Part shown: positions 6,870 through 32,948 of the stretch, piece after piece | How positions within the stretch are numbered: position 1 is the first letter of the stretch | Layout: each line of letters starts with the position of its first letter | Assembly (NCBI GenBank): GCA_037137535.1 | Contig: JBAXKC010000028.1 | Span: forward strand, 1-32,948 | Direction of reading: 5' to 3' | Source of the DNA: a bacterium | Lineage (GTDB): Bacteria > Cyanobacteriota > Vampirovibrionia > Gastranaerophilales > JBAXKC01 | DNA length: 32,948 nucleotides | Position numbers and translations under genes: made by a program | Notes under the pieces: generated by a model | The model's input: only the letters and a program-made list of their open reading frames with translations | Told to the model about the DNA's origin: nothing | Databases searched by the model: none

Positions 6870-7072
6870 TGCTAAAATACTCTAAATAAAATTATAATTA
6901 CGTTATGGTAATACAAAAATGAAGTGTTTGTATAGATTGTGCAAAATTAGTTTATCAATCCTGTAATATATAAACAATCTAATTAAAATTAATTGCCTAA
7001 ATTTTAATATTTGTCTACTATATTTATTATAGATGTTTTTCGTTTGAAATAGTTTCAGAGGCAGGAAATATT

Positions 7073-8590
7073 ATGATTGAAGTTAAACCCAAAATTGATG
7101 AAATAAAGTCTTTAATAAACAACAGCGAAGATAAATATATATTTCCTGTCTGGCACGAAGTTTTTGCTGATTTAGAAACACCTGTATCTGCTTATCATAA
7201 AGTTTGTGGCGATAAACAATACAGTTACCTTTTAGAATCAGTCGAAGGAGCGGAAAATGTCGGACGCTATTCATTCATTGGCATTGACCCGTTATATATA
7301 TTAAAATCCGACAAAAATTCAGGTAAAATTTTTAACACCTCCACTAATGAAGTAATAGCAGAAGCAGAAAATCCTTATGAACTTTTAGACAACTTTTTAA
7401 AAAAGTATAAATTTGAAAATTTCGGCTTGAATTATTCATCAGGAGCCATCGGATATTTTGGCTATGACACTGTAAGACACATTGAACCTGTTTTAAAAAA
7501 ACAATATGACAATATTGAAGAATGTTCCAGCTTTCCTGAAGCATATTTTATGATTGCAGGCACAGTAATTGTTTTTGATCATGTGAAACACAAAATGTAT
7601 GTCATAAACAATGTTTTTGCTGATAAACACAGTAATGTAGAAGAATTATACAGGCAATCAATAGATAAAATTCAAGTAATACTGGATAAATTATCAAATG
7701 CTCATAATTTAAAGGCATTAAACATTAAAGAAACTGATAAAAAACCTGTCATTAAATCTAATTTTACTTATGACGAATGGGTTAAATCAGTAAAAAGTGC
7801 TAAAGAGCATATTTTAGCAGGTGATATTTTTCAAGTTGTTCTATCTCAGCGTTTTTGCGTAGAAAAAAGTCCTAAAATAGATAATTTGACAATTTATAGA
7901 GCTTTAAGAAGTATTAATCCTTCGCCGTATTTATATTTTCTTAACTTTGGAGATTTTCAGATAGTCGGCTCTTCCCCTGAAATTATGATTAAATGTTCAA
8001 CTGATAAAATTGCAAAAATGCGACCAATTGCAGGAACAAGAAAAAGAGGCATTAACGCTGAACATGATTTAGAACTCGAAGCAGACCTTTTAAACGACCA
8101 AAAAGAAGTTGCTGAACACGTTATGCTTGTAGACCTTGCAAGAAATGACCTCGGACGTGTATGCAAATATGGAACGGTAAAAGTAAAAAGGTTTATGAAA
8201 GTAGAAAAATATTCTCATGTTATGCATATAGTAAGTGATACTGAAGGAATATTAGACGATAAATTATCGTCGATAGACCTTGCAAAAGCTTGCTTTCCTG
8301 CGGGAACTCTATCAGGTGCGCCAAAAGTCAGAGCGATGCAACTTATATATGAACTTGAGAAATCAGCAAGAGGACCTTACGGTGGAAGTATAGGTCATTT
8401 TGGATTTAGCGGAGATGTAAATACGGCTATAACAATCAGAACAATGCTAATAAGAGGTAATAATGTTTATGTTCAAGCAGGTGCAGGAATTGTAGCCGAT
8501 TCTGATCCTGATATGGAATATAAAGAAACACAAAACAAAGCAGCAGCGTTAATTCAAGCGCTAGCATCTTTGGAGGCAAGTATTGACTGA
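7073..8590 (+). CDS. trpE: anthranilate synthase component I
   Basis: YLLES, GRYSFIG, GDIFQVVLSQ, NPSPY, RPIAGTR, EHVMLVDLARND, YSHVMH, GTLSGAPK, QAGAGIV. Confidence 0.92.
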   Translation: MIEVKPKIDEIKSLINNSEDKYIFPVWHEVFADLETPVSAYHKVCGDKQYSYLLESVEGAENVGRYSFIGIDPLYILKSDKNSGKIFNTSTNEVIAEAENPYELLDNFLKKYKFENFGLNYSSGAIGYFGYDTVRHIEPVLKKQYDNIEECSSFPEAYFMIAGTVIVFDHVKHKMYVINNVFADKHSNVEELYRQSIDKIQVILDKLSNAHNLKALNIKETDKKPVIKSNFTYDEWVKSVKSAKEHILAGDIFQVVLSQRFCVEKSPKIDNLTIYRALRSINPSPYLYFLNFGDFQIVGSSPEIMIKCSTDKIAKMRPIAGTRKRGINAEHDLELEADLLNDQKEVAEHVMLVDLARNDLGRVCKYGTVKVKRFMKVEKYSHVMHIVSDTEGILDDKLSSIDLAKACFPAGTLSGAPKVRAMQLIYELEKSARGPYGGSIGHFGFSGDVNTAITIRTMLIRGNNVYVQAGAGIVADSDPDMEYKETQNKAAALIQALASLEASID

Positions 8591-8990
8591 GCTTTTAATT
8601 CTATATCAAATGATATACGGTTTTATAAACCCTGCTGACCCCACAGGAGCAACAATGTATCCTTCAGGCGTAAAAGATTGCGACAGCGGCTTTATGCTAA
8701 ACCCTGAAAGTCCTTATCCTGTGGTTAAAATCAGTAACAAAATTTATGATGCTCAATCTAATCCTATTGAAGCAGGAATTTACCAGATTAGAATTTCTGG
8801 TGATGAAAAAAAAATGTTTTTTTATGAAGGTACAACCAAGAAAGCAGAATTTGATATAATAAAAGTAAACAAATTTACAACTGCAAAAATGATTTCAGTT
8901 ACTGAAACAGAGAGCGTAGATCCTTACAGTTTAATTATTTCGGTAAAAATTGCCGATAAAGAATATGTTGCGGTTGCTTATAAACAGTAA
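8583..8990 (+). CDS. hypothetical protein
   Basis: 135-aa ORF with a TTG start overlapping the trpE stop, co-directional. No motif recognised. Confidence 0.7.
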   Translation: MTELLILYQMIYGFINPADPTGATMYPSGVKDCDSGFMLNPESPYPVVKISNKIYDAQSNPIEAGIYQIRISGDEKKMFFYEGTTKKAEFDIIKVNKFTTAKMISVTETESVDPYSLIISVKIADKEYVAVAYKQ

Positions 8991-9087
8991 GGTTTAGTTT
9001 GGATTTTACAGCATTTTATTGTAAGATATAGGGCAATAAATAACTTAACAGGTTATTTGCGTAAATAATTTTTTAGGAGTACACGAG

Positions 9088-10032
9088 ATGGCAGAAGCTT
9101 GCGAAAGTAATAGTAAAAGTTTTGTATTTATGGATGGAGAGTATGTCCCTTCAACAGAGGCTAAAATCAGCGTCAGGGCTCATGCTTTTTTATATGGAAC
9201 TTCTGTCTTCGAAGGTATTAGAGCATACTGGAATGCCGAGCAAAAGCAGCTTTATATCTTTAGAATGCGTGAACATTATGAAAGATTAATGAAAAGCTGT
9301 AAAATTATGCATTTACCAATTCCATATACTGTTGATGAGCTTTGCGACATTACAGTTGAATTATTAAAGAAAAATGCACCTGAAACAGGTACATACATTA
9401 GACCAACAGCATATAAAGGTGCTGAACAGATTGGCCCTAAGCTAATTGACCCTAATAATAACTTTTTAGTATTTACTACACCTTTAGGCGATTATGTCGA
9501 TATTTCAAAAGGTTTAAGCGTTTGCGTTTCAAACTGGAGAAGAGTTGATGATAATGCAATTCCACCTAGAGCTAAAATTGGCGGTAGCTATGCTAATACC
9601 TCTTTAATCATTACTGATGCAATTAAAGCAGGGTTTGACGAAGCAATAGTTCTTTCTCACGCAGGTCAAGTTACTGAAGGAAGTGCAATGAACCTTTATT
9701 TAGTACAAGACGGCAAACTTATCACAACTCAAACAACTGATAACATACTAATGGGAATAACTAGAGATACCGTTAAAGAAATGGCACAACAAGAATTTGG
9801 ACTGGAAGTTATCGAAAGACCTATCAGCAGAACAGAACTTTATATTTCGGATGAAGCTTTCTTCTGCGGTACAGGGGCGCAAATCAGCCCAATTAGTAAA
9901 ATTGACAATAGACTTGTCGGTGATGGAAATATCGGACCGATAACAAAAAAATTACAAGACTTATACTTTGAAATTGTAAAAGGTGAAGTGGAACAATATA
10001 AAAAATGGTTAGTTCCTGTTTATGATAATTAA
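9088..10032 (+). CDS. ilvE: branched-chain amino acid aminotransferase
   Basis: HAFLYGTSVFEGIRAY, YIRP, AKIGGSY (PLP Lys), EGSAMN, GITR, FFCGTGA. SD aggag. Confidence 0.93.
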   Translation: MAEACESNSKSFVFMDGEYVPSTEAKISVRAHAFLYGTSVFEGIRAYWNAEQKQLYIFRMREHYERLMKSCKIMHLPIPYTVDELCDITVELLKKNAPETGTYIRPTAYKGAEQIGPKLIDPNNNFLVFTTPLGDYVDISKGLSVCVSNWRRVDDNAIPPRAKIGGSYANTSLIITDAIKAGFDEAIVLSHAGQVTEGSAMNLYLVQDGKLITTQTTDNILMGITRDTVKEMAQQEFGLEVIERPISRTELYISDEAFFCGTGAQISPISKIDNRLVGDGNIGPITKKLQDLYFEIVKGEVEQYKKWLVPVYDN

Positions 10033-10756
10033 TTTTATTGGTGAATGTGTAATTAATCTGTTTTTAGCTTTAAGATTTCTCTTTAGCGGTCATATAAACT
10101 GGAAGAATACACTGTTTCAATCTGCAAAAATTGGTTATGATTCTATACCTATTTCATTAGTAATCTCTTTAGTAAGCGGGGCTGTTTTTTCACTGCAAGT
10201 ATCAAAACAGTTTGTTCAAAGTGGTGCTGATGCCTATATAGGTGGGCTTATTTCAGTTGCAATTGTTAGGGAGATGGCTCCTGTTTTTGCCTCATTGGCA
10301 ATAGCTGCGAGAGCAGGAACAGCAATTGCCGCAGAAGTCGGTAATATGAAAGTAACTGAACAGGTTGATGCGTTGAAAACACTAAAAGTTGACCCTATCG
10401 AGTATCTGCTTTTACCTAGATTAATTGCAGGCTTTACTATGGTTCCGCTAATTACAATTCTTTCTATATTAATAGGAGTTTTAGGCGGAATGGTAATTGC
10501 TAAATTTTCAGTAGGACTTCACCATAACTTATACTATACCTCGGTATGGCACTCGTTAAGACCTTATGATATTTATGTCAGCCTTGTAAAAGGAGCTGTA
10601 TTTGGGGTTTTAATTACCTTAATATGCACTACTCATGGATTATTAACATCGGGCGGAGCAAAAGAAGTAGGTCAATCAACAACAAAAGCCGCTGTTTATA
10701 CTGCTATTGCAATATTATTATTTGATTACTTAATCACTTGGATCTATTACAGCTAG
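10022..10756 (+). CDS. mlaE: MlaE-family lipid asymmetry ABC transporter permease
   Basis: REMAPV, GTAIAAEVGNMKVTEQVDALKTL..DP..YLLLPR, GGAKEVGQSTT. Confidence 0.9.
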   Translation: MIINFIGECVINLFLALRFLFSGHINWKNTLFQSAKIGYDSIPISLVISLVSGAVFSLQVSKQFVQSGADAYIGGLISVAIVREMAPVFASLAIAARAGTAIAAEVGNMKVTEQVDALKTLKVDPIEYLLLPRLIAGFTMVPLITILSILIGVLGGMVIAKFSVGLHHNLYYTSVWHSLRPYDIYVSLVKGAVFGVLITLICTTHGLLTSGGAKEVGQSTTKAAVYTAIAILLFDYLITWIYYS

Positions 10757-10785
10757 TAGAAAACCGATTTCAATTTAATATGCAA

Positions 10786-10820
10786 AAATAGCGTCTATTA
10801 ATTAATAATAGACGCTATTT
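10786..10820. terminator. bidirectional intrinsic terminator
   Basis: Perfect 15-bp stem aaatagcgtctatta/taatagacgctattt between convergent mlaE and radical SAM genes. Confidence 0.8.
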
Positions 10821-10838
10821 ATTTCTATAGAACAGTAA

Positions 10839-12305
10839 TTAATTCAGAAAAATCCTCTTAAAATGTGCATAAAAAACAGCCATTTTTATTGCTCTGCTGA
10901 AAGATTCAGGATACTTAAACAGGCTTATAAAAAACAATTTCCAATAATATTTTCTATCTTTTTCAACAATTCCTAATAGAAAAACAGATTTAAATAAAGC
11001 CTTAATATTACTCCAAGTCAATTTTTCAGAACTATAACATTTGTAATCACTAAAAAAGGTTAAGACTCGCTCATAATATTCTTTTGGAGAATAAATAACT
11101 GATATTATTTTTTTATAACCTTTAAGCAGCTTTTCTTCATTCATTTTCGGAATAAAGTTCAAATAAGTATCAGTATTATTTCCCGAAGTATCTTGAATTA
11201 ATCTATTTTCTTTTTTTAACCTCTTATAAAGTTTAGTTCCCGGTAAAGCTTGTAATAAACCTACCATTGCAATAACTACGCCTGTTTTCTGTATGAATTC
11301 TATTTGTCGATCAAAAATAGTTTCATCATCATGATCAAAACCAACAATAAAACCTGCTGATACTTCCATTCCATGCTGATGAATTTTTTTGACAGAGTCA
11401 ACTAAACTTCGGTTTTTATTCTGATATTTGCCACATTCTTGAAGAGACTCAGTTGATGGTGTTTCTAAGCCCACAAAAACCGCATTAAAGCCTGCATCTC
11501 TCATTAAAGCTAATAATTCATCATCATCTGATAAATTCAAAGAAACCTCAGTCATAAAGGTCATTGACCGTTTTGTCAATCGCCTCCACTTGATAATATA
11601 TCTTAATAGCTCTTTTGATTTTGATTTATTCCCAATAAAGTTATCATCAACAATAAATATAGGTCCATCCCAACCTTTTCTAACAAGCGAATTTAGCTCT
11701 TTTATCACTTGTAAAGGCTTTTTAGTTCTTGGAATTCTTCCATTCAAATTGACAATATCACAAAATTCGCAATCAAAAGGGCATCCTCTCGAATACTGTA
11801 TTGGCATTTTAGAATAATATTTAAAATCCAACAAATCCCACTGTGGAATTGGAGATAAAGACATATCAGGTTTTTTATCTGAAGTATAGATTCTTTTTAG
11901 ATTATTTTTTTCTAAATCATTAAGAAATAAAGGCAAAGTAATTTCACCTTCATCAAGAATGAAATGATCTATTTCTGAAAATTGGTCATAAAGACTTGTA
12001 AATAAAGGTCCACCTGCAACTATTTTTTTATTAAGTTTTTTACATTTGTCGATAATTTCTTTGACTGAATCTTTTTGTGTAATCATTGCGCTTATAAAGA
12101 CATAATCAGCTGCAATTATATCGTTATCATTAAGTTTAGCGACATTCAAATCTACTAATTTACGTTCATATTTATCAGGAATCATTGATGCAATCGTCAA
12201 TAATCCCAGTGGGGGCAAAAGTGCTTTTTTGGATATAAATTTTAACGAATGTTTAAAACCCCAGAATGTATCGGGATATTCAGGATAAACTAATAATATT
12301 TTCAT
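10839..12305 (-). CDS. B12-binding radical SAM protein (DUF4070-type C-terminus)
   Basis: N-terminal cobalamin-binding-like domain (PPLGLLTIA, GGP), SRGCPFDCEFC motif, VDDNFIGN, GFIVGFDHD. Confidence 0.9.
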   Translation of the reverse strand: MKILLVYPEYPDTFWGFKHSLKFISKKALLPPLGLLTIASMIPDKYERKLVDLNVAKLNDNDIIAADYVFISAMITQKDSVKEIIDKCKKLNKKIVAGGPLFTSLYDQFSEIDHFILDEGEITLPLFLNDLEKNNLKRIYTSDKKPDMSLSPIPQWDLLDFKYYSKMPIQYSRGCPFDCEFCDIVNLNGRIPRTKKPLQVIKELNSLVRKGWDGPIFIVDDNFIGNKSKSKELLRYIIKWRRLTKRSMTFMTEVSLNLSDDDELLALMRDAGFNAVFVGLETPSTESLQECGKYQNKNRSLVDSVKKIHQHGMEVSAGFIVGFDHDDETIFDRQIEFIQKTGVVIAMVGLLQALPGTKLYKRLKKENRLIQDTSGNNTDTYLNFIPKMNEEKLLKGYKKIISVIYSPKEYYERVLTFFSDYKCYSSEKLTWSNIKALFKSVFLLGIVEKDRKYYWKLFFISLFKYPESFSRAIKMAVFYAHFKRIFLN

Positions 12306-27743: not shown

Positions 27744-28919
27744 ATGGCCGTAAGGCATATTGTCCCAAACGTTCACCATGTTGGTGTTCTTGATTGGGAT
27801 AGAAGATTATTCGATAAATTAATTCCTTTACCACAAGGAACAACCTATAATTCTTACGTTATTCAAGGTAGTGAAAAAACAGCTATAATTGACACAGTTT
27901 ATCCTCAGAAAGCTGAAGAACTTTTAGCTAATATTAAAAGACTCAATCTTGAAAAAATTGACTATATTATAGCTAGTCATGGAGAACAGGATCATTCCGG
28001 GACAGCTCCAATTCTGTTACAAATGTATCCTGAAGCTAAAATAGTTACCAATAATAAATGTATTACCTCTATTATGGACATGTTAATGGTTGATAAAGAC
28101 TGTTTCATTGAAATAAAAGATGGAGATACCTTATCTCTTGGTGATAAAACGTTAGAATTTATGATAACTCCTTGGGTGCATTGGCCAGATACAATGGTTA
28201 CATACCTTAAAGAGGATAAAATTCTCTTTACCTGTGACTTTTTCGGATCACATTTAGCGTCAAGTAAAATGTTTGCAATAGAACATGAGGTTTATGAACC
28301 TGCAAAACGCTATTATGCTGAAATAATGATGCCGTTCAGAAAACAAATCCAAAGGCATATTGCAAGAATAGAGCCGATGGATGTGTCTATAATCGCACCT
28401 AGTCACGGACCTCTTTATAATAACCCTAAATTCATCATTGATGCCTATAAAGATTGGGTTTCTGATGATGTTAAAAATGAAGTTATTATTCCGTATGTTT
28501 CTATGTATGAAAGTACAACCAAACTTGTTCTTCATCTGACTGATCAGCTTATGGAAAAGGGCGTAAACGTAAAACCTTTTAACGTAACTGAATCAGACCT
28601 AGGAGACTTTGCTGTTTCTGTTGTTGATGCTGCAACTATGGTCGTTGGTTCATCTATGGTTCTTTCGGGCGCTCATCCGTCTATAATTCCATGGGTATTT
28701 ATGGCTAATGCTATAAGACCGAAAATACAGTATACCTCAATTATAGGCTCTTATGGATGGGGTGGAAACATGATTGATCAATTAAATGGACTAATGGCTC
28801 ATATTAAATCAGAACCATTAGAAAATATAATTGTAAAAGGTCATCCACGTCCTGAAGATTTCATTAAAATTGAAGCTCTTGCTAATCAAATATATGAAAA
28901 ACATCTGCCTTTAATGTAA
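27744..28919 (+). CDS. fprA: flavodiiron protein (A-type flavoprotein)
   Basis: GTTYNSY, HGEQDHSG, HWPD, CDFFG, PSHG diiron ligands, followed by a flavodoxin domain (GSYGWGG). Confidence 0.93.
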   Translation: MAVRHIVPNVHHVGVLDWDRRLFDKLIPLPQGTTYNSYVIQGSEKTAIIDTVYPQKAEELLANIKRLNLEKIDYIIASHGEQDHSGTAPILLQMYPEAKIVTNNKCITSIMDMLMVDKDCFIEIKDGDTLSLGDKTLEFMITPWVHWPDTMVTYLKEDKILFTCDFFGSHLASSKMFAIEHEVYEPAKRYYAEIMMPFRKQIQRHIARIEPMDVSIIAPSHGPLYNNPKFIIDAYKDWVSDDVKNEVIIPYVSMYESTTKLVLHLTDQLMEKGVNVKPFNVTESDLGDFAVSVVDAATMVVGSSMVLSGAHPSIIPWVFMANAIRPKIQYTSIIGSYGWGGNMIDQLNGLMAHIKSEPLENIIVKGHPRPEDFIKIEALANQIYEKHLPLM

Positions 28920-28951
28920 TACTCCTACAAATTTCGTTAAGAAATTATATT

Positions 28952-28994
28952 TAACCCTATTACAGGACGAAAAAAGTCCTAGGTAATAGGGTTA
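28952..28994 (+). terminator. intrinsic terminator after fprA
   Basis: taaccctattac-aggac / gtcct-(ag)-gtaatagggtta extended stem followed by ttt. Confidence 0.75.
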
Positions 28995-29096
28995 TTTAGT
29001 TGCTATAACAGACTTTATTTTATAAACAAATTTTACATCAAAGCAACTGTCTGTATGGTTATGTTTTAATATTATAGGTGTAGAAAAGGAATAAAG

Positions 29097-29189
29097 ATGC
29101 AAGAAAATAATCATAATTATCAAATATGTCTATTATGCGGAAAGTATACTCCTGAAACCACTTCATCCGCGGTAAAAATATATGTATAG
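29097..29189 (+). pseudogene. short 5' gene relic 1 (MQENNHNYQICLLCGKYTPETTSSAVKIYV)
   Basis: Has SD aagga. First 20 nt are identical to 32416-32435, and 29148-29186 matches 30541-30579 at 34/39 nt. Confidence 0.6.
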
Positions 29190-29254
29190 ATATTGACAAA
29201 GAGGGTCTATTGAATACCTCTTTTTTAGTGTTGATAAGAATAAGTGAGGAATAA

Positions 29255-30478
29255 ATGAAAAAGAAATTCAATATTAGTAGATTAATAAATTTAATTCGAA
29301 AATCAAAAATATTAATGATATGCAGTTTAATTTTTTTGTTATGCATTGTAGGTTGTGCCATTCCGTCAAATAGTAATCCAACTTCTATTAATGATACAGA
29401 AATGTTAGGTCATTTTGAAAAAGCAGGTTCATTAAAAATAGGTAGATACGACCACACTGCTACATTGTTACAAGATGGAAGAATTCTTATTATAGGTGGA
29501 AGAGGTGGAGCTGAACATTCAACTTTGAATCAAGCTGAAATATATGACCCAACGACTAAAAAAAGTACAAAGATTGGCAGAATAAATGTTGCTAGATGTA
29601 ATCATACAGCAACACTTTTAAAGGACGGTAGAGTCCTTATAACTGGCGGCACTGGCCAAGGGAATCAATATAATATGGCAAGTGCTGAAATATTTGATCC
29701 AGTGACAAATACTTTTAAGAAATTGCCTGATATGAATTATAAAAGATCAGAGCATTCAGCAATATTATTGCCTAATGGAAAAATACTTATTAGTGGAGGA
29801 AGGGCGGCAGGAAATACTGCAGAGTTATTTGATCCTGAAACAGAAAGATTCAGCATTACAAGCAATTTAAGTGCTAATAATAGATATAATCACAATTCTG
29901 TACTCTTAAAAGATGGTCGCATTCTTTTAGATGGTGGAGGTTGTTATTATGAAACCAAACTTTCAACGAAATCTAACAAGATGATGATTGTAAATGAAAA
30001 CTGCAATATAGCTGAAACATATAATCACGAAACAGAAATGTTTATACCATTAAAATCTAAAATGAATAATGCTAGACGAAGTAATTCAATAACAGTTCTA
30101 AAAAATGGCAAAGTATTAATAACTGGGGGTGAAGATATAAGTATAATAACCGGTACCTCATTAAAAACAGCCGAAATACTTGATCCTGAAACTGAAACCT
30201 GGCAAAAATTGCCTGATATGAATTATGACAGAGTAAATCATAAAGCAATGCTGCTTAAAAATGGAAATGTATTAATAATTGGTGGAATATACCCTGAGTT
30301 TATAGGGCCTGAGGTTTATGATCCAGTAAAAAACAAGTTCTTTATCATTAAGCAAAAAACTACCAAAAGAGCCTCTCCTCAAACAGTTATTTTAACTGAT
30401 GGAAGCGTAGTTATAATTGGTGGCGCCCACTATGGAGATGGGGTAAAAGCAATAGAAATATATAAGGAGAATAAATAA
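29255..30478 (+). CDS. Kelch-repeat beta-propeller protein, probable lipoprotein
   Basis: Repeated R.(D/N/E)H(T/S)A.LL.(D/N)G(R/K).LI.GG...AE.(Y/F)DP blades. Hydrophobic stretch ending in the lipobox-like IVGC. Confidence 0.92.
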   Translation: MKKKFNISRLINLIRKSKILMICSLIFLLCIVGCAIPSNSNPTSINDTEMLGHFEKAGSLKIGRYDHTATLLQDGRILIIGGRGGAEHSTLNQAEIYDPTTKKSTKIGRINVARCNHTATLLKDGRVLITGGTGQGNQYNMASAEIFDPVTNTFKKLPDMNYKRSEHSAILLPNGKILISGGRAAGNTAELFDPETERFSITSNLSANNRYNHNSVLLKDGRILLDGGGCYYETKLSTKSNKMMIVNENCNIAETYNHETEMFIPLKSKMNNARRSNSITVLKNGKVLITGGEDISIITGTSLKTAEILDPETETWQKLPDMNYDRVNHKAMLLKNGNVLIIGGIYPEFIGPEVYDPVKNKFFIIKQKTTKRASPQTVILTDGSVVIIGGAHYGDGVKAIEIYKENK

Positions 30479-30684
30479 TGGTAGATAGTAAAGTTAATAT
30501 TATATCTTGTGCTCAGATTGCTGCTTCAGTTTATTCCTTTACTCCTGAAACGCCATCATCCTTGGTAAAAATATATGTACCGAAAATAGTACAAGATTGG
30601 GAAACACTAAAAGCTGATGGATGGCAGTTAGTTGATAAAGCAGATGATAATAAAAATGGTTTTCAAGAAGTAGGGTGGGTTTAA
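30478..30684 (+). pseudogene. truncated ORF (relic 2), resembles the N-terminus of a lipase-type effector
   Basis: TAATG-coupled to the Kelch stop, strong SD aaggag. Pattern A.IA.SVY...GW......NGFQ. The stop lies in the centre of the 30669-30696 palindrome. Confidence 0.55.
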
Positions 30685-30696
30685 ACCCACCCTACT
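30669..30696. repeat. perfect 28-bp palindrome, GTAG-type REP-like
   Basis: agtagggtgggtttaaacccaccctact equals its own reverse complement and is GC-rich in an AT-rich context. Confidence 0.85.
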
Positions 30697-30865
30697 AACT
30701 GTCAGCAATAAAGACAGGAAATGTCGAGTTATCTTACTACAAGGTTATTACCCTATTAACTGGGGATGCTGAGATGATATAAAGTATATTAGAGCTTTAA
30801 TCTATGAATAAACGATAGAATGGTATGTATTGCAGACTATACAGTCTGTAATAAGTTAGGAAAAG

Positions 30866-32173
30866 ATGAAAGATAAATTTAAGAATAAAAAATTGATAGC
30901 AATGATAATATTGTTAGTAATATTATTGTGCTTAATCATAATTCATTTAAGTTTAATAACCGACTTTAAAAAAACAGGTAATAATATACATAAACGTGTA
31001 AACCATACTGCCTCCTTACTTCCTAATGGCAAAGTACTTGTTGCAGGGGGCTTAGATGATGATCTTGGAGGTGGTCCCAGCAACACAGCGGAAATCTATG
31101 ATCCAAAAACACAAAAATTCTCTTTAACGAGGAATTTACTTGTAAAAAGAATAAATCCTCAATCAATTTTATTAAAAAACGGTAAAGTACTTATTGTTGG
31201 TGGAGTTGATGATTTACCAATGTATAAGAATCAAATTAAAATTGCTGAATTATATGATTATAAGTCTGGTAAATTTTCTCGCACAGGGGACCTAAACATA
31301 CCAAGACTGAATGGGTTTAAATTAACTTTATTGAATGATGGAAGAGTGCTTGTAACTGGTGGGCTAACAACAGCTTATGGAATTAGAAAAAATAATTGTG
31401 AAATTTATGATCCGAACACAGCTAAATTCAAACTCATATCTCCAATGAAATTTAAAAGAGATATGCATAATGCAGTCTTACTAAAAAATGGAAATGTATT
31501 AATAGTAGGAGGAAATACTACTTTTAATACTATAGATGAAAAATCAATACAACAAGCAGCAGCAGGTGCTGGTATTGAATCTACCACAGAAATATTTAAT
31601 TCTAAAACAGAAAAATTTTCTTTAGCTGGGAATATAATTTATCGTATCATTCCAGGTGCTTCAATTTTATTACCTGATGGGAATGTTCTCATTATTGGAG
31701 GATTTGGAAAAAAAGCAGACGATAATAATAAATTTTATGATACAAAATCGGTAGATAGAGAATTTTATCCTAAAAATAGAAAATACTATACAATACCACA
31801 TTCGTTATATACAGCTGAAATTTACGATATAAACAAAAACAAAGTAGTGAAAGTCCTACAAATGAATGCTAGGCATGGACGTCCAACTTTTAACATCTTA
31901 AAAAATGGGAATATTTTAATTTTTGGAACTAATCAAAAAGATAAACAAAGAGTTGTAAATACAGATTATTCAATTGTTTATACGAAAGAAGACAATAACT
32001 TTGAAGAAATCTTTGATATTAAAAGCAATACATTTAAAAAAATTAAAAATATTGGATATAGTCGGGGGCAACATACGGCAACAACTTTAAAGAATGGTCA
32101 AGTACTAATTGTTGGTGGTACTTCGTATCCAAGACATAATATTCCTAATTTAATATTGGGGGAGCTTAAATAA
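30866..32173 (+). CDS. Kelch-repeat beta-propeller protein with N-terminal signal/anchor
   Basis: Basic N-terminus plus hydrophobic LIAMIILLVILLCLIII. Repeated HTA.LL.NGKVL..GG blades. Confidence 0.92.
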   Translation: MKDKFKNKKLIAMIILLVILLCLIIIHLSLITDFKKTGNNIHKRVNHTASLLPNGKVLVAGGLDDDLGGGPSNTAEIYDPKTQKFSLTRNLLVKRINPQSILLKNGKVLIVGGVDDLPMYKNQIKIAELYDYKSGKFSRTGDLNIPRLNGFKLTLLNDGRVLVTGGLTTAYGIRKNNCEIYDPNTAKFKLISPMKFKRDMHNAVLLKNGNVLIVGGNTTFNTIDEKSIQQAAAGAGIESTTEIFNSKTEKFSLAGNIIYRIIPGASILLPDGNVLIIGGFGKKADDNNKFYDTKSVDREFYPKNRKYYTIPHSLYTAEIYDINKNKVVKVLQMNARHGRPTFNILKNGNILIFGTNQKDKQRVVNTDYSIVYTKEDNNFEEIFDIKSNTFKKIKNIGYSRGQHTATTLKNGQVLIVGGTSYPRHNIPNLILGELK

Positions 32174-32228
32174 TTTGTCTGATTCTCCGATAGAATCGAG
32201 TTAGAATAAAGAAATCGGAGGATAAACA

Positions 32229-32375
32229 ATGTCAAAGTTATTTACAAAAGAACAAGCCAGAAAATTCTTGAAAGAAAATAATCTCAAAGACGGCGAAAGT
32301 ATCGCAGATGCTTTACGAGATAGCTTTAAAGACCTCATACAGGAAGCTCTTGAATCTGAAATGGACGAAGAGTAG
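32229..32375 (+). mobile_element. IS256-family transposase N-terminal fragment (48 aa)
   Basis: MSKLFTKEQARKFLKENNLKDGESIADALRDSFKDLIQEALESEMDEE* matches the IS256 'ALEAEMDEHLGY' region and stops just before LGY. SD ggagg. Confidence 0.75.
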
Positions 32376-32392
32376 TAGGGTTTAAACCTTAC
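32375..32392. repeat. shorter variant of the REP-like palindrome
   Basis: gtagggtttaaaccttac has the same GTAGGG start, TTTAAA centre and TAC end as 30670-30695, with one mismatched pair. Confidence 0.5.
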
Positions 32393-32415
32393 AAAATTGT
32401 TACTAGAGGTTTATA

Positions 32416-32537
32416 ATGCAAGAAAATAATCATAAATATATAAAATATTCTGTTTGTTAGAAACAATCTTACGCAAAAGTCTCATTAATGGAATGTTAAA
32501 ATACAATCATAAACTGAGAGAAGGAATAAATGAATAA
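32416..32537 (+). pseudogene. gene relic 3, frameshifted, overlapping the start of the third Kelch gene
   Basis: SD gagg. First 20 nt are identical to 29097-29116. Removing one TA from 'aatatata' gives MQENNHKYKIFCLLETILRKSLINGMLKYNHKLREGINE*, which overlaps the Kelch ATG (atgaataa). Confidence 0.5.
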
Positions 32538-32948
32538 ATTTTCGAAAAAGAAAAAGTTTTTAGTTTTACTGTTTATATTTATGGTGATAGCGACTTCTAC
32601 TTTTGTTTTAGATACCTTTCGGCTTAAACATAATAAATTTGTTAAAGCTCCAGATATGAATTATTCAAGAATTTATCATACTGCAACTTTATTAAAGGAT
32701 GGCAGAGTTCTTATTGTAGGAGGAGACAATTCATCCTCTTTACAGATATCTGAAATGGAAATTTATTATCCTTCAATAAAACAGTTTGAAATTGTTACTA
32801 GGTTGAATATTCCTCGATCAAATCATACGGCAACACTATTAAAGGATGGCAGAGTCCTTATAGTAGGAGGTAAAAACGGTTCAGACTTTCTAACTTCTAT
32901 TGAAATTTATGATCCAGTAAAAAATACTATAGTTAAAATAAATAATAT
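32530..32948 (+). CDS. Kelch-repeat protein 3, runs off the window end
   Basis: Not in the ORF track. MNKFSKKKKFLVLLFIFMVIATSTFV...RIYHTATLLKDGRVLIVGG...RSNHTATLLKDGRVLIVGG...IEIYDP. SD aagga. Confidence 0.92.
   Translation, partial: MNKFSKKKKFLVLLFIFMVIATSTFVLDTFRLKHNKFVKAPDMNYSRIYHTATLLKDGRVLIVGGDNSSSLQISEMEIYYPSIKQFEIVTRLNIPRSNHTATLLKDGRVLIVGGKNGSDFLTSIEIYDPVKNTIVKINN

Follow-up and report, generated by a model that had tools for sequence, protein, structure and literature searches.

Probable remnants of tandem Kelch-lipase cassettes in a Gastranaerophilales genome, with a possible immunity role for the retained Kelch genes

Polymorphic toxin loci, such as those of contact-dependent inhibition (CDI), the Rhs proteins and the orphan modules of type VI secretion systems (T6SS), accumulate orphan immunity genes, or whole arrays of them, beside fragments of toxin genes. 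The locus described here, which lies at the right-hand end of a contig from a bacterium of the order Gastranaerophilales (GenBank assembly GCA_037137535.1, contig JBAXKC010000028.1), bears some resemblance to such modules in that tandem, intact partner genes stand among truncated gene pieces and the debris of an insertion sequence (IS): three genes for exported Kelch beta-propeller proteins (K1, K2 and K3) are each preceded by a short open reading frame (ORF; R1, R2 and R3), and the whole is probably what remains of cassettes in which a Kelch gene was followed by a lipase gene. In the classical orphan modules it is the 3' (C-terminal) part of the toxin gene which survives, whereas here 5' stubs are found, owing to the N-terminal position of the lipase domain and to a Kelch gene placed ahead of it; moreover, an immunity role for the Kelch proteins is putative. 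The window referred to throughout is the complete contig of 32,948 nucleotides (nt), which belongs to an assembly of 2.95 Mb in 81 contigs with approximately 31% G+C. Contigs of this assembly (genome G000) are labelled C followed by a number, the window being C28, whilst genomes of the same order are labelled G and fetched loci L.

The nearest described counterpart of the lipases concerned is the T6SS lipase effector Tle(ECL) with its immunity protein Tli (PDB 7ubz and 9cys; 10.1101/2023.03.28.534661). As reported in that preprint, Tle of Enterobacter cloacae is an alpha/beta-hydrolase with a GxSxG elbow and a likeness to fungal neutral lipases, and its gene adjoins that of a repeat-protein lipoprotein; this ankyrin-repeat protein, Tli, binds Tle, must be periplasmic to protect the cell and is itself needed to activate the lipase. 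The carriers named in the text are VgrG, PAAR, DUF4150, Rhs and CdiA, together with ankyrin immunity genes, and repeats-in-toxin (RTX) proteins and type I secretion systems (T1SS) are absent from it. The hydrolase type and the adjoining gene for a repeat-protein lipoprotein are shared by the Kelch-linked cassettes found in relatives of the present bacterium. They differ in that the partner is a Kelch beta-propeller and not a set of ankyrin repeats, in that its gene lies upstream and not downstream of the lipase gene, and in that the lipase domain is N-terminal and accompanied by RTX repeats and T1SS genes instead of VgrG, PAAR, Rhs or CdiA; in the present window no lipase is left at all. A second point of comparison is offered by the family I.3 RTX lipases, for example TliA of Pseudomonas fluorescens and LipA of Serratia, which are digestive exoenzymes exported by T1SS and for which we know of no dedicated exported partner gene. 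The Kelch-linked lipases resemble these in their C-terminal RTX repeats and in having an exporter, comprised of an ATP-binding cassette (ABC) protein, a membrane fusion protein and an outer membrane protein, encoded nearby, but differ in that the domain is Lipase_3/Tle(ECL)-like and is often found in proteins of 700 to 2,664 amino acids (aa). The role of immunity or activation partner has a beta-propeller precedent in Proteus mirabilis, where PefE, a beta-propeller by prediction, is named as the immunity protein of PefD, an antibacterial PAAR effector (10.1101/2023.03.28.534661); PefD differs in being no lipase and in its delivery by T6SS.

The coordinates of the locus are collected in Table 1. 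All three Kelch proteins fall within the Kelch-repeat beta-propeller clan (Kelch_1, Kelch_4 and Kelch_6) with scores above the Pfam gathering cut-offs, and a profile of the Kelch alignment matched both designed and natural Kelch propellers in the PDB with E-values down to 1e-37. A preliminary description of this DNA had claimed that the three genes are co-directional and diverged and that each encodes an N-terminal export or anchor signal, and both claims were upheld: K1 is approximately 32% identical to K2 and 42% identical to K3 (tblastn), the three being diverged paralogues, and to judge from the sequence K1 carries a lipobox-like motif (...LLCIVG/C) whilst K2 and K3 begin with a basic stretch followed by an anchor of about 20 hydrophobic residues. 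K1-K3 are thus predicted to be exported or membrane-anchored proteins. Other exported Kelch propellers of bacteria, namely the periplasmic enzymes NanM/YjhT (sialic-acid mutarotase) and the GlxA/galactose-oxidase propeller, give weak matches to K1; however, the scores of 29, 24.9 and 87 bits for NF010730, TIGR03547 and NF052501 are far below the curated cut-offs of 416, 256 and 800, so that an enzyme identity of this kind was dropped for K1-K3, and no sugar-metabolism or copper-oxidase genes occur near them.

Table 1. Features of the Kelch locus; positions are those of the window, and + denotes the forward strand
Feature	Position	Strand	Remarks
K1, intact, predicted exported Kelch beta-propeller, 407 aa	29255..30478	+	Pfam Kelch_6 E 7.7e-39 (130.9 bits, cut-off 25.3, 4 stretches), Kelch_1 E 1e-31
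K2, intact, predicted exported Kelch beta-propeller, 435 aa	30866..32173	+	Pfam Kelch_6 E 9.3e-26, 89.4 bits
K3, predicted exported Kelch beta-propeller, 139 codons in the window	32530..32948	+	Pfam Kelch_4 E 9.1e-15, 54.8 bits (cut-off 21.6); remainder on C17
R1, 30-codon stub	29097..29189	+	5' end matches R3, 3' end matches R2; no Pfam family; read as a leftover lipase-gene start
R2, 68-codon stub	30478..30684	+	Taken to be the 5' ~63 codons of a Lipase_3-type gene truncated ahead of its RGT strand and GxSxG elbow
R3, 14-codon stub	32416..32460	+	First 20 nt identical to R1; promoter-like CTTACA-18-TATAAT overlapping the ATG
K1/R2 junction, 19 nt	30464..30482	+	AAGGAGAATAAATAATGGT; ribosome-binding site inside the 3' end of K1; K1 stop overlaps R2 start (TAATG)
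Terminator-like hairpin, left border of the locus	28953..28997	+	AACCCTATTACAGGAC...GTCCTAGGTAATAGGGTT then ATTT, read by eye; unflagged by the promoter/terminator scan
Hairpin and T-run between R1 and K1	29198..29226	+	AAAGAGG...CCTCTTTTTT, read by eye; unflagged by the scan (loop exceeds its limit)
IS256-family 5' fragment between K2 and R3	32171..32375	+	43-44-nt terminus, then first 48 transposase codons (32229-32375), then break
Perfect 28-nt GC-rich palindrome where R2 ends	30669..30696	.	GTAGGGTGGGTTTAAACCCACCCTAC; one of a small hairpin family

The third Kelch gene runs off the window and reaches its stop codon at C17:725, C28 and C17 overlapping by the 37 nt at which the one ends and the other begins; this 37-mer is found again at C17:145. 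Its last blade in the window and the first blade on C17 are identical at 131 of 144 nt (within 32803-32948 and C17:1-330), near-identity which accounts for the break in the assembly between C28 and C17 and for an uncertain number of blades; from the sequence this looks like a recent amplification of blades, which the assembly may under-count. The earlier expectation that the array continues past the window was therefore right for the remainder of K3 but not for any further Kelch gene: a convergent sigma-factor gene and then housekeeping genes come after K3 on C17, so that the array consists of three Kelch genes and no more.

Ahead of each Kelch gene, at the starts given in the preliminary description, lies a short ORF with a purine-rich motif resembling a ribosome-binding site (RBS). 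These ORFs had been called relics related to one another, which holds for two of the three comparisons. The 3' part of R1 (29147-29186) matches R2 (30540-30579) at 35 of 40 nt with a local score of 55, the maximum of 200 shuffles being 31, and the stretch common to both is found at codon 18 in R1 and codon 22 in R2; the 5' part of R1 (29097-29134) matches R3 (32416-32454) over a gapped 38-nt stretch (score 49, shuffle maximum 35). Between R2 and R3 no likeness was detectable (score 23, inside the shuffle range). None of the three is a member of the Lipase_3/Tle(ECL)-like family, as they end before the RGT and GxSxG motifs and have no Pfam match, and they are at most 5' remnants of lipase genes and not lipases themselves.

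The case for such an origin comes from the genomes of relatives, in which Kelch genes are found directly in front of lipase genes. In family tables covering 301 genomes of the order, including the present one, Kelch_6 occurs in 18 and Lipase_3 in 103, and of the 21 Kelch_6 rows from genomes other than this one three have a Lipase_3 row no more than 2 kb away, against an estimated chance expectation of about 0.02. A closer look at 30 Kelch ORFs in 17 same-order genomes found seven to be followed directly by a lipase gene on the same strand (one in G023, two in G193 and four in G248), and a further three (G003, G042 and G132) to be followed by a weak or partial lipase. In G023 a Kelch gene of 393 aa precedes a lipase of 473 aa; in G193 a start/stop overlap joins a Kelch gene to a 253-aa lipase, behind which come another Kelch gene and a 2,664-aa protein with an N-terminal lipase domain; and three of the four pairs of G248 lie within one cluster. 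Four more pairs come from L066, L077 and L080. Kelch (K) and lipase (L) genes thus form alternating arrays, K-L-K-L in G193 and G248 and, with two genes for transmembrane (TM) proteins, K-TM-TM-L-K-L in L066, and the gaps between the two partners range from -1 to 156 nt, a tight and recurrent linkage of the kind looked for in a toxin-immunity pair, of which the window keeps the stubs only. The Kelch partners of these intact pairs, too, begin with a signal peptide, a lipobox or a membrane anchor on reading of their sequences. When the lipases were instead used as the starting point, in a scan of 185,579 species seeded with a four-row alignment, 69 loci were returned, of which the five with an adjoining Kelch gene were all from this clade.

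The partner genes encode lipases of a recognisable type. Six of the seven paired lipases have Pfam matches to Lipase_3, RTX repeats or both, and the seventh (L058) has RTX repeats and a BLAST match to a small lipase of the present genome on C9 (E 1.5e-12); PF01764 lies above its 22-bit cut-off in L045, L056 (253 aa), L057 (698 and 417 aa), L066, L077 and L080, and just under it in L056 (2,664 aa) and L057 (1,123 aa). The preliminary description had looked to a GxSxG lipase domain in any intact partner of a Kelch gene, and this is what the relatives have: with a Pfam match, the motif GHSLGG and an invariant Asp and His they belong to the Lipase_3/Tle(ECL)-like group, and in an 11-row alignment G126, S128, G130, D185 and H193 are invariant, with a catalytic Ser (of GHSLGG)-Asp-His triad. 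The lipase domain is N-terminal and the RTX repeats C-terminal (HemolysinCabind E 1e-9 to 6e-63), the lipase-bearing proteins of 2,348-2,664 aa carrying HCBP_related as well as RTX repeats, and genes for OEP, ABC_membrane+ABC_tran+Peptidase_C39 and HlyD_3 proteins lie downstream, TolC-like and C39-ABC genes coming after the lipase in G193 and G248. The lipases of the relatives are therefore type I secretion (RTX) substrates, which had not been foreseen.

The present window is linked by a junction to the pairs of G193 and G132. The junction of K1 and R2 follows a pattern, AAGGAGAATAANTAATGGT, which occurs once in the 2.95-Mb genome, at this very point, and in 1.0 Mb of fetched loci only at the Kelch-lipase junctions of G193 (L056) and G132 (L059), both of which read AAGGAGAATAACTAATGGT; the lipases there start MVE and MVA, respectively, and R2 starts MVD. 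G132 has, behind an intact Kelch gene, a lipase stub of 45 codons, 52% identical to residues 1-40 of the G193 lipase (E 3e-5), and then the tail fragment of a HlyD gene, which is the same erosion arisen independently. Because of this common junction and the erosion in G132, R2 is read as the 5' end of a deleted lipase gene, and R1 and R3 as further stubs because R1 resembles both R2 and R3. The ancestral unit of a lipase-like gene and a Kelch gene, of which the Kelch half was kept, had been proposed from the window itself and is supported by the intact pairs, the shared junction and G132, but its order was the reverse of that proposed: as the intact unit has the Kelch gene in front, the partner of K1 is R2 and that of K2, on the far side of the IS fragment, is R3, which leaves R1 without the Kelch gene that once preceded it and K3 without a following stub.

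A co-fold of an intact pair, which had been suggested at the outset, scored well above its controls. For a Kelch protein of G248 (residues 30-399) and its own lipase domain the ipSAE score was 0.63 (runs of 0.61, 0.63 and 0.67), compared with 0.01 for the best of three controls; that mark is reached by 116 of 157 solved complexes and by 2 of 215 mismatched pairs, counts which hold only roughly for this pair because its alignments were custom-made. The runs agree in at least 75% of contacts, with a predicted local distance difference test (pLDDT) of 76-77 for the partner. In the model, loops of every blade on one face of the propeller contact the lipase at its N-terminal segment (residues 4-34), at the RGT motif (69-72) and at the elbow (127-129, including Ser128), the best-defined contacts being those of lipase residues 18-29, and an interface lying over the nucleophile elbow and RGT would suggest occlusion. 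The best solved relative of the lipase profile in the PDB is 7ubz_B/9cys, a 'T6SS lipase effector' (E 1.3e-9); since that complex contains no Kelch protein, the co-fold result is not a simple recall of it.

We therefore favour the following history. The ancestral cassette would have comprised a gene for an exported Kelch propeller followed by a gene for a secreted RTX lipase, as in the intact relatives, where the two are often translationally coupled and T1SS genes often come next; tandem copies of this cassette would then have been worn down, the lipase genes being deleted to their first 14-68 codons (R1, R2 and R3) and the Kelch genes kept, and one junction would have gained a truncated IS256 element. 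One face of the propeller would bind the lipase domain, cover its active site and so protect the envelope of the producer, an immunity-type role by analogy with the ankyrin lipoprotein Tli of the T6SS lipase Tle, and orphan Kelch genes may have been retained because they still protect against the lipases of neighbours. The parts of this reading are not equally secure. That the locus consists of eroded Kelch-lipase cassettes we hold with considerable confidence, and binding of the lipase by the Kelch protein seems on balance probable; that the Kelch protein is a protective inhibitor is plausible but falls slightly short of an even chance. The history and the immunity-type role taken together are about evenly poised, the role resting on the co-fold of a relative's pair, an exported location read from sequence and the likeness of the lipase to an antibacterial effector. 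More tentative still is the wider proposal that exported Kelch propellers form a new class of cognate inhibitors of lipase toxins of the Tle(ECL)-like kind, which in Melainabacteria/Gastranaerophilales would leave the cell as RTX proteins through type I secretion and not through T6SS or CDI, with the three cassettes here turned into an orphan-immunity array against the lipases of neighbours; bolder still, R1 and R2 may yet encode the Kelch-binding N-terminal segment.

A number of observations, given in this and the next two paragraphs, weigh against the favoured history or its immunity component. T1SS substrates bypass the periplasm, which leaves no obvious place for an exported inhibitor to meet the lipase, and the pair which was co-folded comes from a relative and does not involve K1-K3. 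In addition, the divergence of the two partners is decoupled, which is not what strict toxin-immunity co-evolution predicts: the two Kelch proteins of G193 are 43% identical and their lipases 90%, those of L077 and L080 are 90% identical in the Kelch protein and 66% in the lipase, and across pairs which are not independent the Spearman coefficient of the two identities is 0.42, short of the co-variation sought in a toxin-immunity pair. Such decoupling would sit well with the same cassette history but a Kelch protein acting as an accessory partner, which might help the lipase to fold or become active, tether the N-terminal lipase domain of giant RTX proteins in the periplasm or at the surface, or serve as the subunit that binds the target. 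This we judge unlikely on the whole, yet it remains a serious rival, as the co-fold indicates binding only and not inhibition, as Tli is reported to be required for the activation of Tle in E. cloacae, and as an N-terminal lipase domain in proteins of 2,348-2,664 aa with RTX and HCBP_related repeats presumably resembles retained surface RTX proteins. However, a helper would be useless without its lipase, and yet three intact Kelch ORFs stand beside stubs here and one in G132; the modelled contacts over the nucleophile elbow and RGT motif favour occlusion; and lipase genes of other phyla have unrelated exported proteins in that position, as is typical where immunity genes vary. The last point derives from homologous lipase loci outside the clade, where, at seven of the 16 inspected, a protein with a signal peptide or lipobox and no Pfam family is encoded upstream in tight linkage (L087:3953-4798, L096:4231-4866, L099:4279-4881, L104:3765-4856, L100:3987-4877, L098:3727-4614 and L105:4144-4857). 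These proteins, mostly unrelated to one another by sequence, are candidate alternative partner or immunity families; their hosts are Proteobacteria, Fusobacteria and other metagenome-assembled genomes (MAGs), and the N-terminal-lipase RTX proteins in them reach more than 1,800 aa.

The link between the stubs and lipases must also be considered with caution. R2 matched itself only among 1.84 billion representative proteins (phmmer), and had no longer homologue in a word-indexed protein collection and no relative in metagenome contigs, the sole match there (L133) being a chance PSSLVKIY in an unrelated high-GC ORF; the stubs had no homologue in their own genome (tblastn) or in 60 same-order relatives, where the best foreign E-value was 0.022. 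The intact ORF foreseen earlier, starting MQENNH or containing TPET.SS.VKIYV, was likewise absent from the genome, the 60 relatives and the protein and metagenome searches, and since no full-length homologue of the relics was found by sequence, synteny was used in its place. Against two hidden Markov models (HMMs) of the lipase N-terminus R2 ranked 32 and 86 of 50,864 six-frame ORFs with E-values of 23 and 50, which are not significant, R1 ranked 6502, and neither R1 nor R3 was recognised as a lipase; hhalign placed R2 residues 11-34 collinear with lipase residues 8-37, again without significance (P 0.13). The first hint on R2 had come from the N-termini of two small Lipase_3 paralogues of this genome, C9:42937-43767 (276 aa) and C14:46803-47660 (about 290 aa), which are 40% identical to each other and have neither RTX repeats nor a Kelch neighbour; R2 and the C9 protein share 10 of 15 residues. 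By sequence alone, a lipase origin of the stubs is thus suggested and not proven.

The same findings could be explained by a plain expansion of exported Kelch paralogues, in which the short ORFs are chance or a shared promoter or leader accompanied by IS and hairpin debris, and the lipases of relatives have no bearing on this locus. R1 and R3 are identical over 20 nt although K1 and K3 are only 42% identical, their similarity begins at the promoter-like site, and it recurs without an ATG at C34:3166-3239 (minus strand), so that these may be regulatory elements and not neutral relics. The C34 stretch is 84% identical over 62 nt to the promoter-plus-start region of R1 and 93% identical over 29 nt to R3; it heads a non-coding region of about 700 nt in front of a sigma-70-type gene, has no Kelch gene in its vicinity, and could represent either a fourth relic or a regulatory element in common with R1 and R3. 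Furthermore, a lipase neighbour is lacking for 20 of the 30 relatives' Kelch ORFs and at four more Kelch loci of this genome, so that the Kelch family is not tied to lipases throughout, and in a quick and poorly resolved Kelch tree (36 rows, the 139-aa piece of K3 being left out) the lipase-linked genes form no clade (6 changes for 7 rows). We nevertheless regard this explanation as improbable, for the K1/R2 junction is unique in the genome and common to the Kelch-lipase junctions of two others, R2 has the same stop/start overlap and MV(D/E) start as the G193 and G132 lipases, short as it is it still falls in the top 0.06-0.17% of ORFs against the lipase N-terminus models, and the stretch shared with R1 lies inside the R2 ORF at a comparable distance from the start codon. 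Less likely still is that the stubs are working micro-genes or leaders, with R1 and R2 either encoding peptides that preserve the Kelch-binding N-terminal segment of the lipase or adjusting Kelch expression as upstream ORFs, since, although both have retained an RBS and an open frame, share their 35/40-nt stretch at a conservation far above that of the Kelch genes, and would align with the best-defined contacts of the co-fold, that alignment is the non-significant one above, R3 has just 14 codons, and no conservation was seen outside this genome (60 relatives, 1.84 billion proteins and metagenome contigs).

On the favoured history of eroded Kelch-lipase cassettes, the locus suggests two things which would be new for a cassette of a toxin lipase and a repeat protein, seen here in eroded form: the Kelch fold of the partner and the type I secretion route. 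A full-text literature search, with subscription papers and supplements outside its scope, found no description of a Kelch partner of a lipase or RTX protein. If Kelch proteins neutralise these lipases, they would add a new fold to the proteins that give immunity to antibacterial lipases, type I secretion would be a further route for a toxin domain known from T6SS, Rhs and CDI systems, and there would be a first concrete handle on how the uncultured, non-photosynthetic relatives of cyanobacteria in animal guts and fresh water antagonise other bacteria. Only ruins are left in the window, which is of value because it makes the pairing visible and tells which half was retained. As a natural experiment, the eroded array points to the lipase as the dispensable half, lost four times including G132, with the Kelch gene kept. 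The Kelch-lipase pairing is directly testable with synthetic genes.

Little else of the lipase half remains in this genome. Searches with seven intact lipases of relatives (tblastn) found no further lipase sequence in the locus and no remaining RTX lipase in the genome. Two complete T1SS loci with HlyD, C39-ABC and TolC-like genes are kept elsewhere (C1:300074-304901 and C5:76044-81074), and the ABC protein of both is 66-68% identical to ABC proteins adjoining the RTX lipases of relatives; both loci lie in housekeeping surroundings with no substrate gene alongside.

Some further arrangements of Kelch and lipase genes were seen in relatives. Downstream of the intact pair in L077, a second Kelch gene is broken into three ORFs of 144, 144 and 135 aa with no lipase after it (L077:7213-8517), the decaying member there being a Kelch gene without partner. 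In L061 (G158:C6), positions 6990-11351 contain two tandem copies, with identical BLAST scores, of a 2.2-kb unit in which a gene of 226 aa diverges from a Kelch gene of 409 aa; the unit is not lipase-linked. Shorter Lipase_3 genes in Gastranaerophilales-type MAGs have small predicted membrane proteins alongside on the opposite strand, some of them tandem or alternating with lipase copies: L082:3687-4969 (three tandem paralogues of about 150 aa), L079:5834-6385 and 7338-7889, L083:4354-4866, L088:4460-4831 and L078:3114-4001. A small membrane protein with Lipase_3 is thus a candidate for a second lipase/partner arrangement. Rumen 'RUG' lipases of 386-412 aa showed no link to Kelch genes and were not considered further, being a subgroup of another kind and probably cytoplasmic.

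To the left of the Kelch genes are a rubredoxin gene and then a metallo-beta-lactamase/ODP-domain gene (27744-28919; Pfam ODP E 2e-26, Lactamase_B E 1.9e-16), referred to previously as fprA. A promoter/terminator scan of the locus gave 17 sites against a shuffle mean of 23.6, i.e. no excess, and an Rfam search of 28800-32948 returned only a chance microRNA match on the palindrome (E 0.52).

The IS256 fragment between K2 and R3 had been missed in the preliminary description. Positions 32171-32214 are 100% identical over 42-44 nt to the ends of C62, C63, C41, C10, C49 and C27 (blastn), and the 48 aa which follow match the N-termini of annotated IS256 family transposases in all four matching plasmid records (E 9e-6 to 2e-3). 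PF00872 (Transposase_mut) was not found in the assembly, and with one terminus and 48 codons in place of a PF00872 ORF between terminal inverted repeats the sequence is a fragment and not a full IS256 element; a multicopy element of this family is probably behind many of the contig breaks. The palindrome at the end of R2 is one of several in this AT-rich genome (TAGGGTGGGTTWAAACCCACCCTA and shorter GGGTTTAAACCC forms), the others being located at C7:10598-10620, C5:213-238, C1:293690 and C5:1056. The one at C7:10598 is followed by a T-run and is terminator-like, and two palindromes lie exactly at the ends of gene fragments, that of R2 and that of the IS256 fragment (32375-32391).

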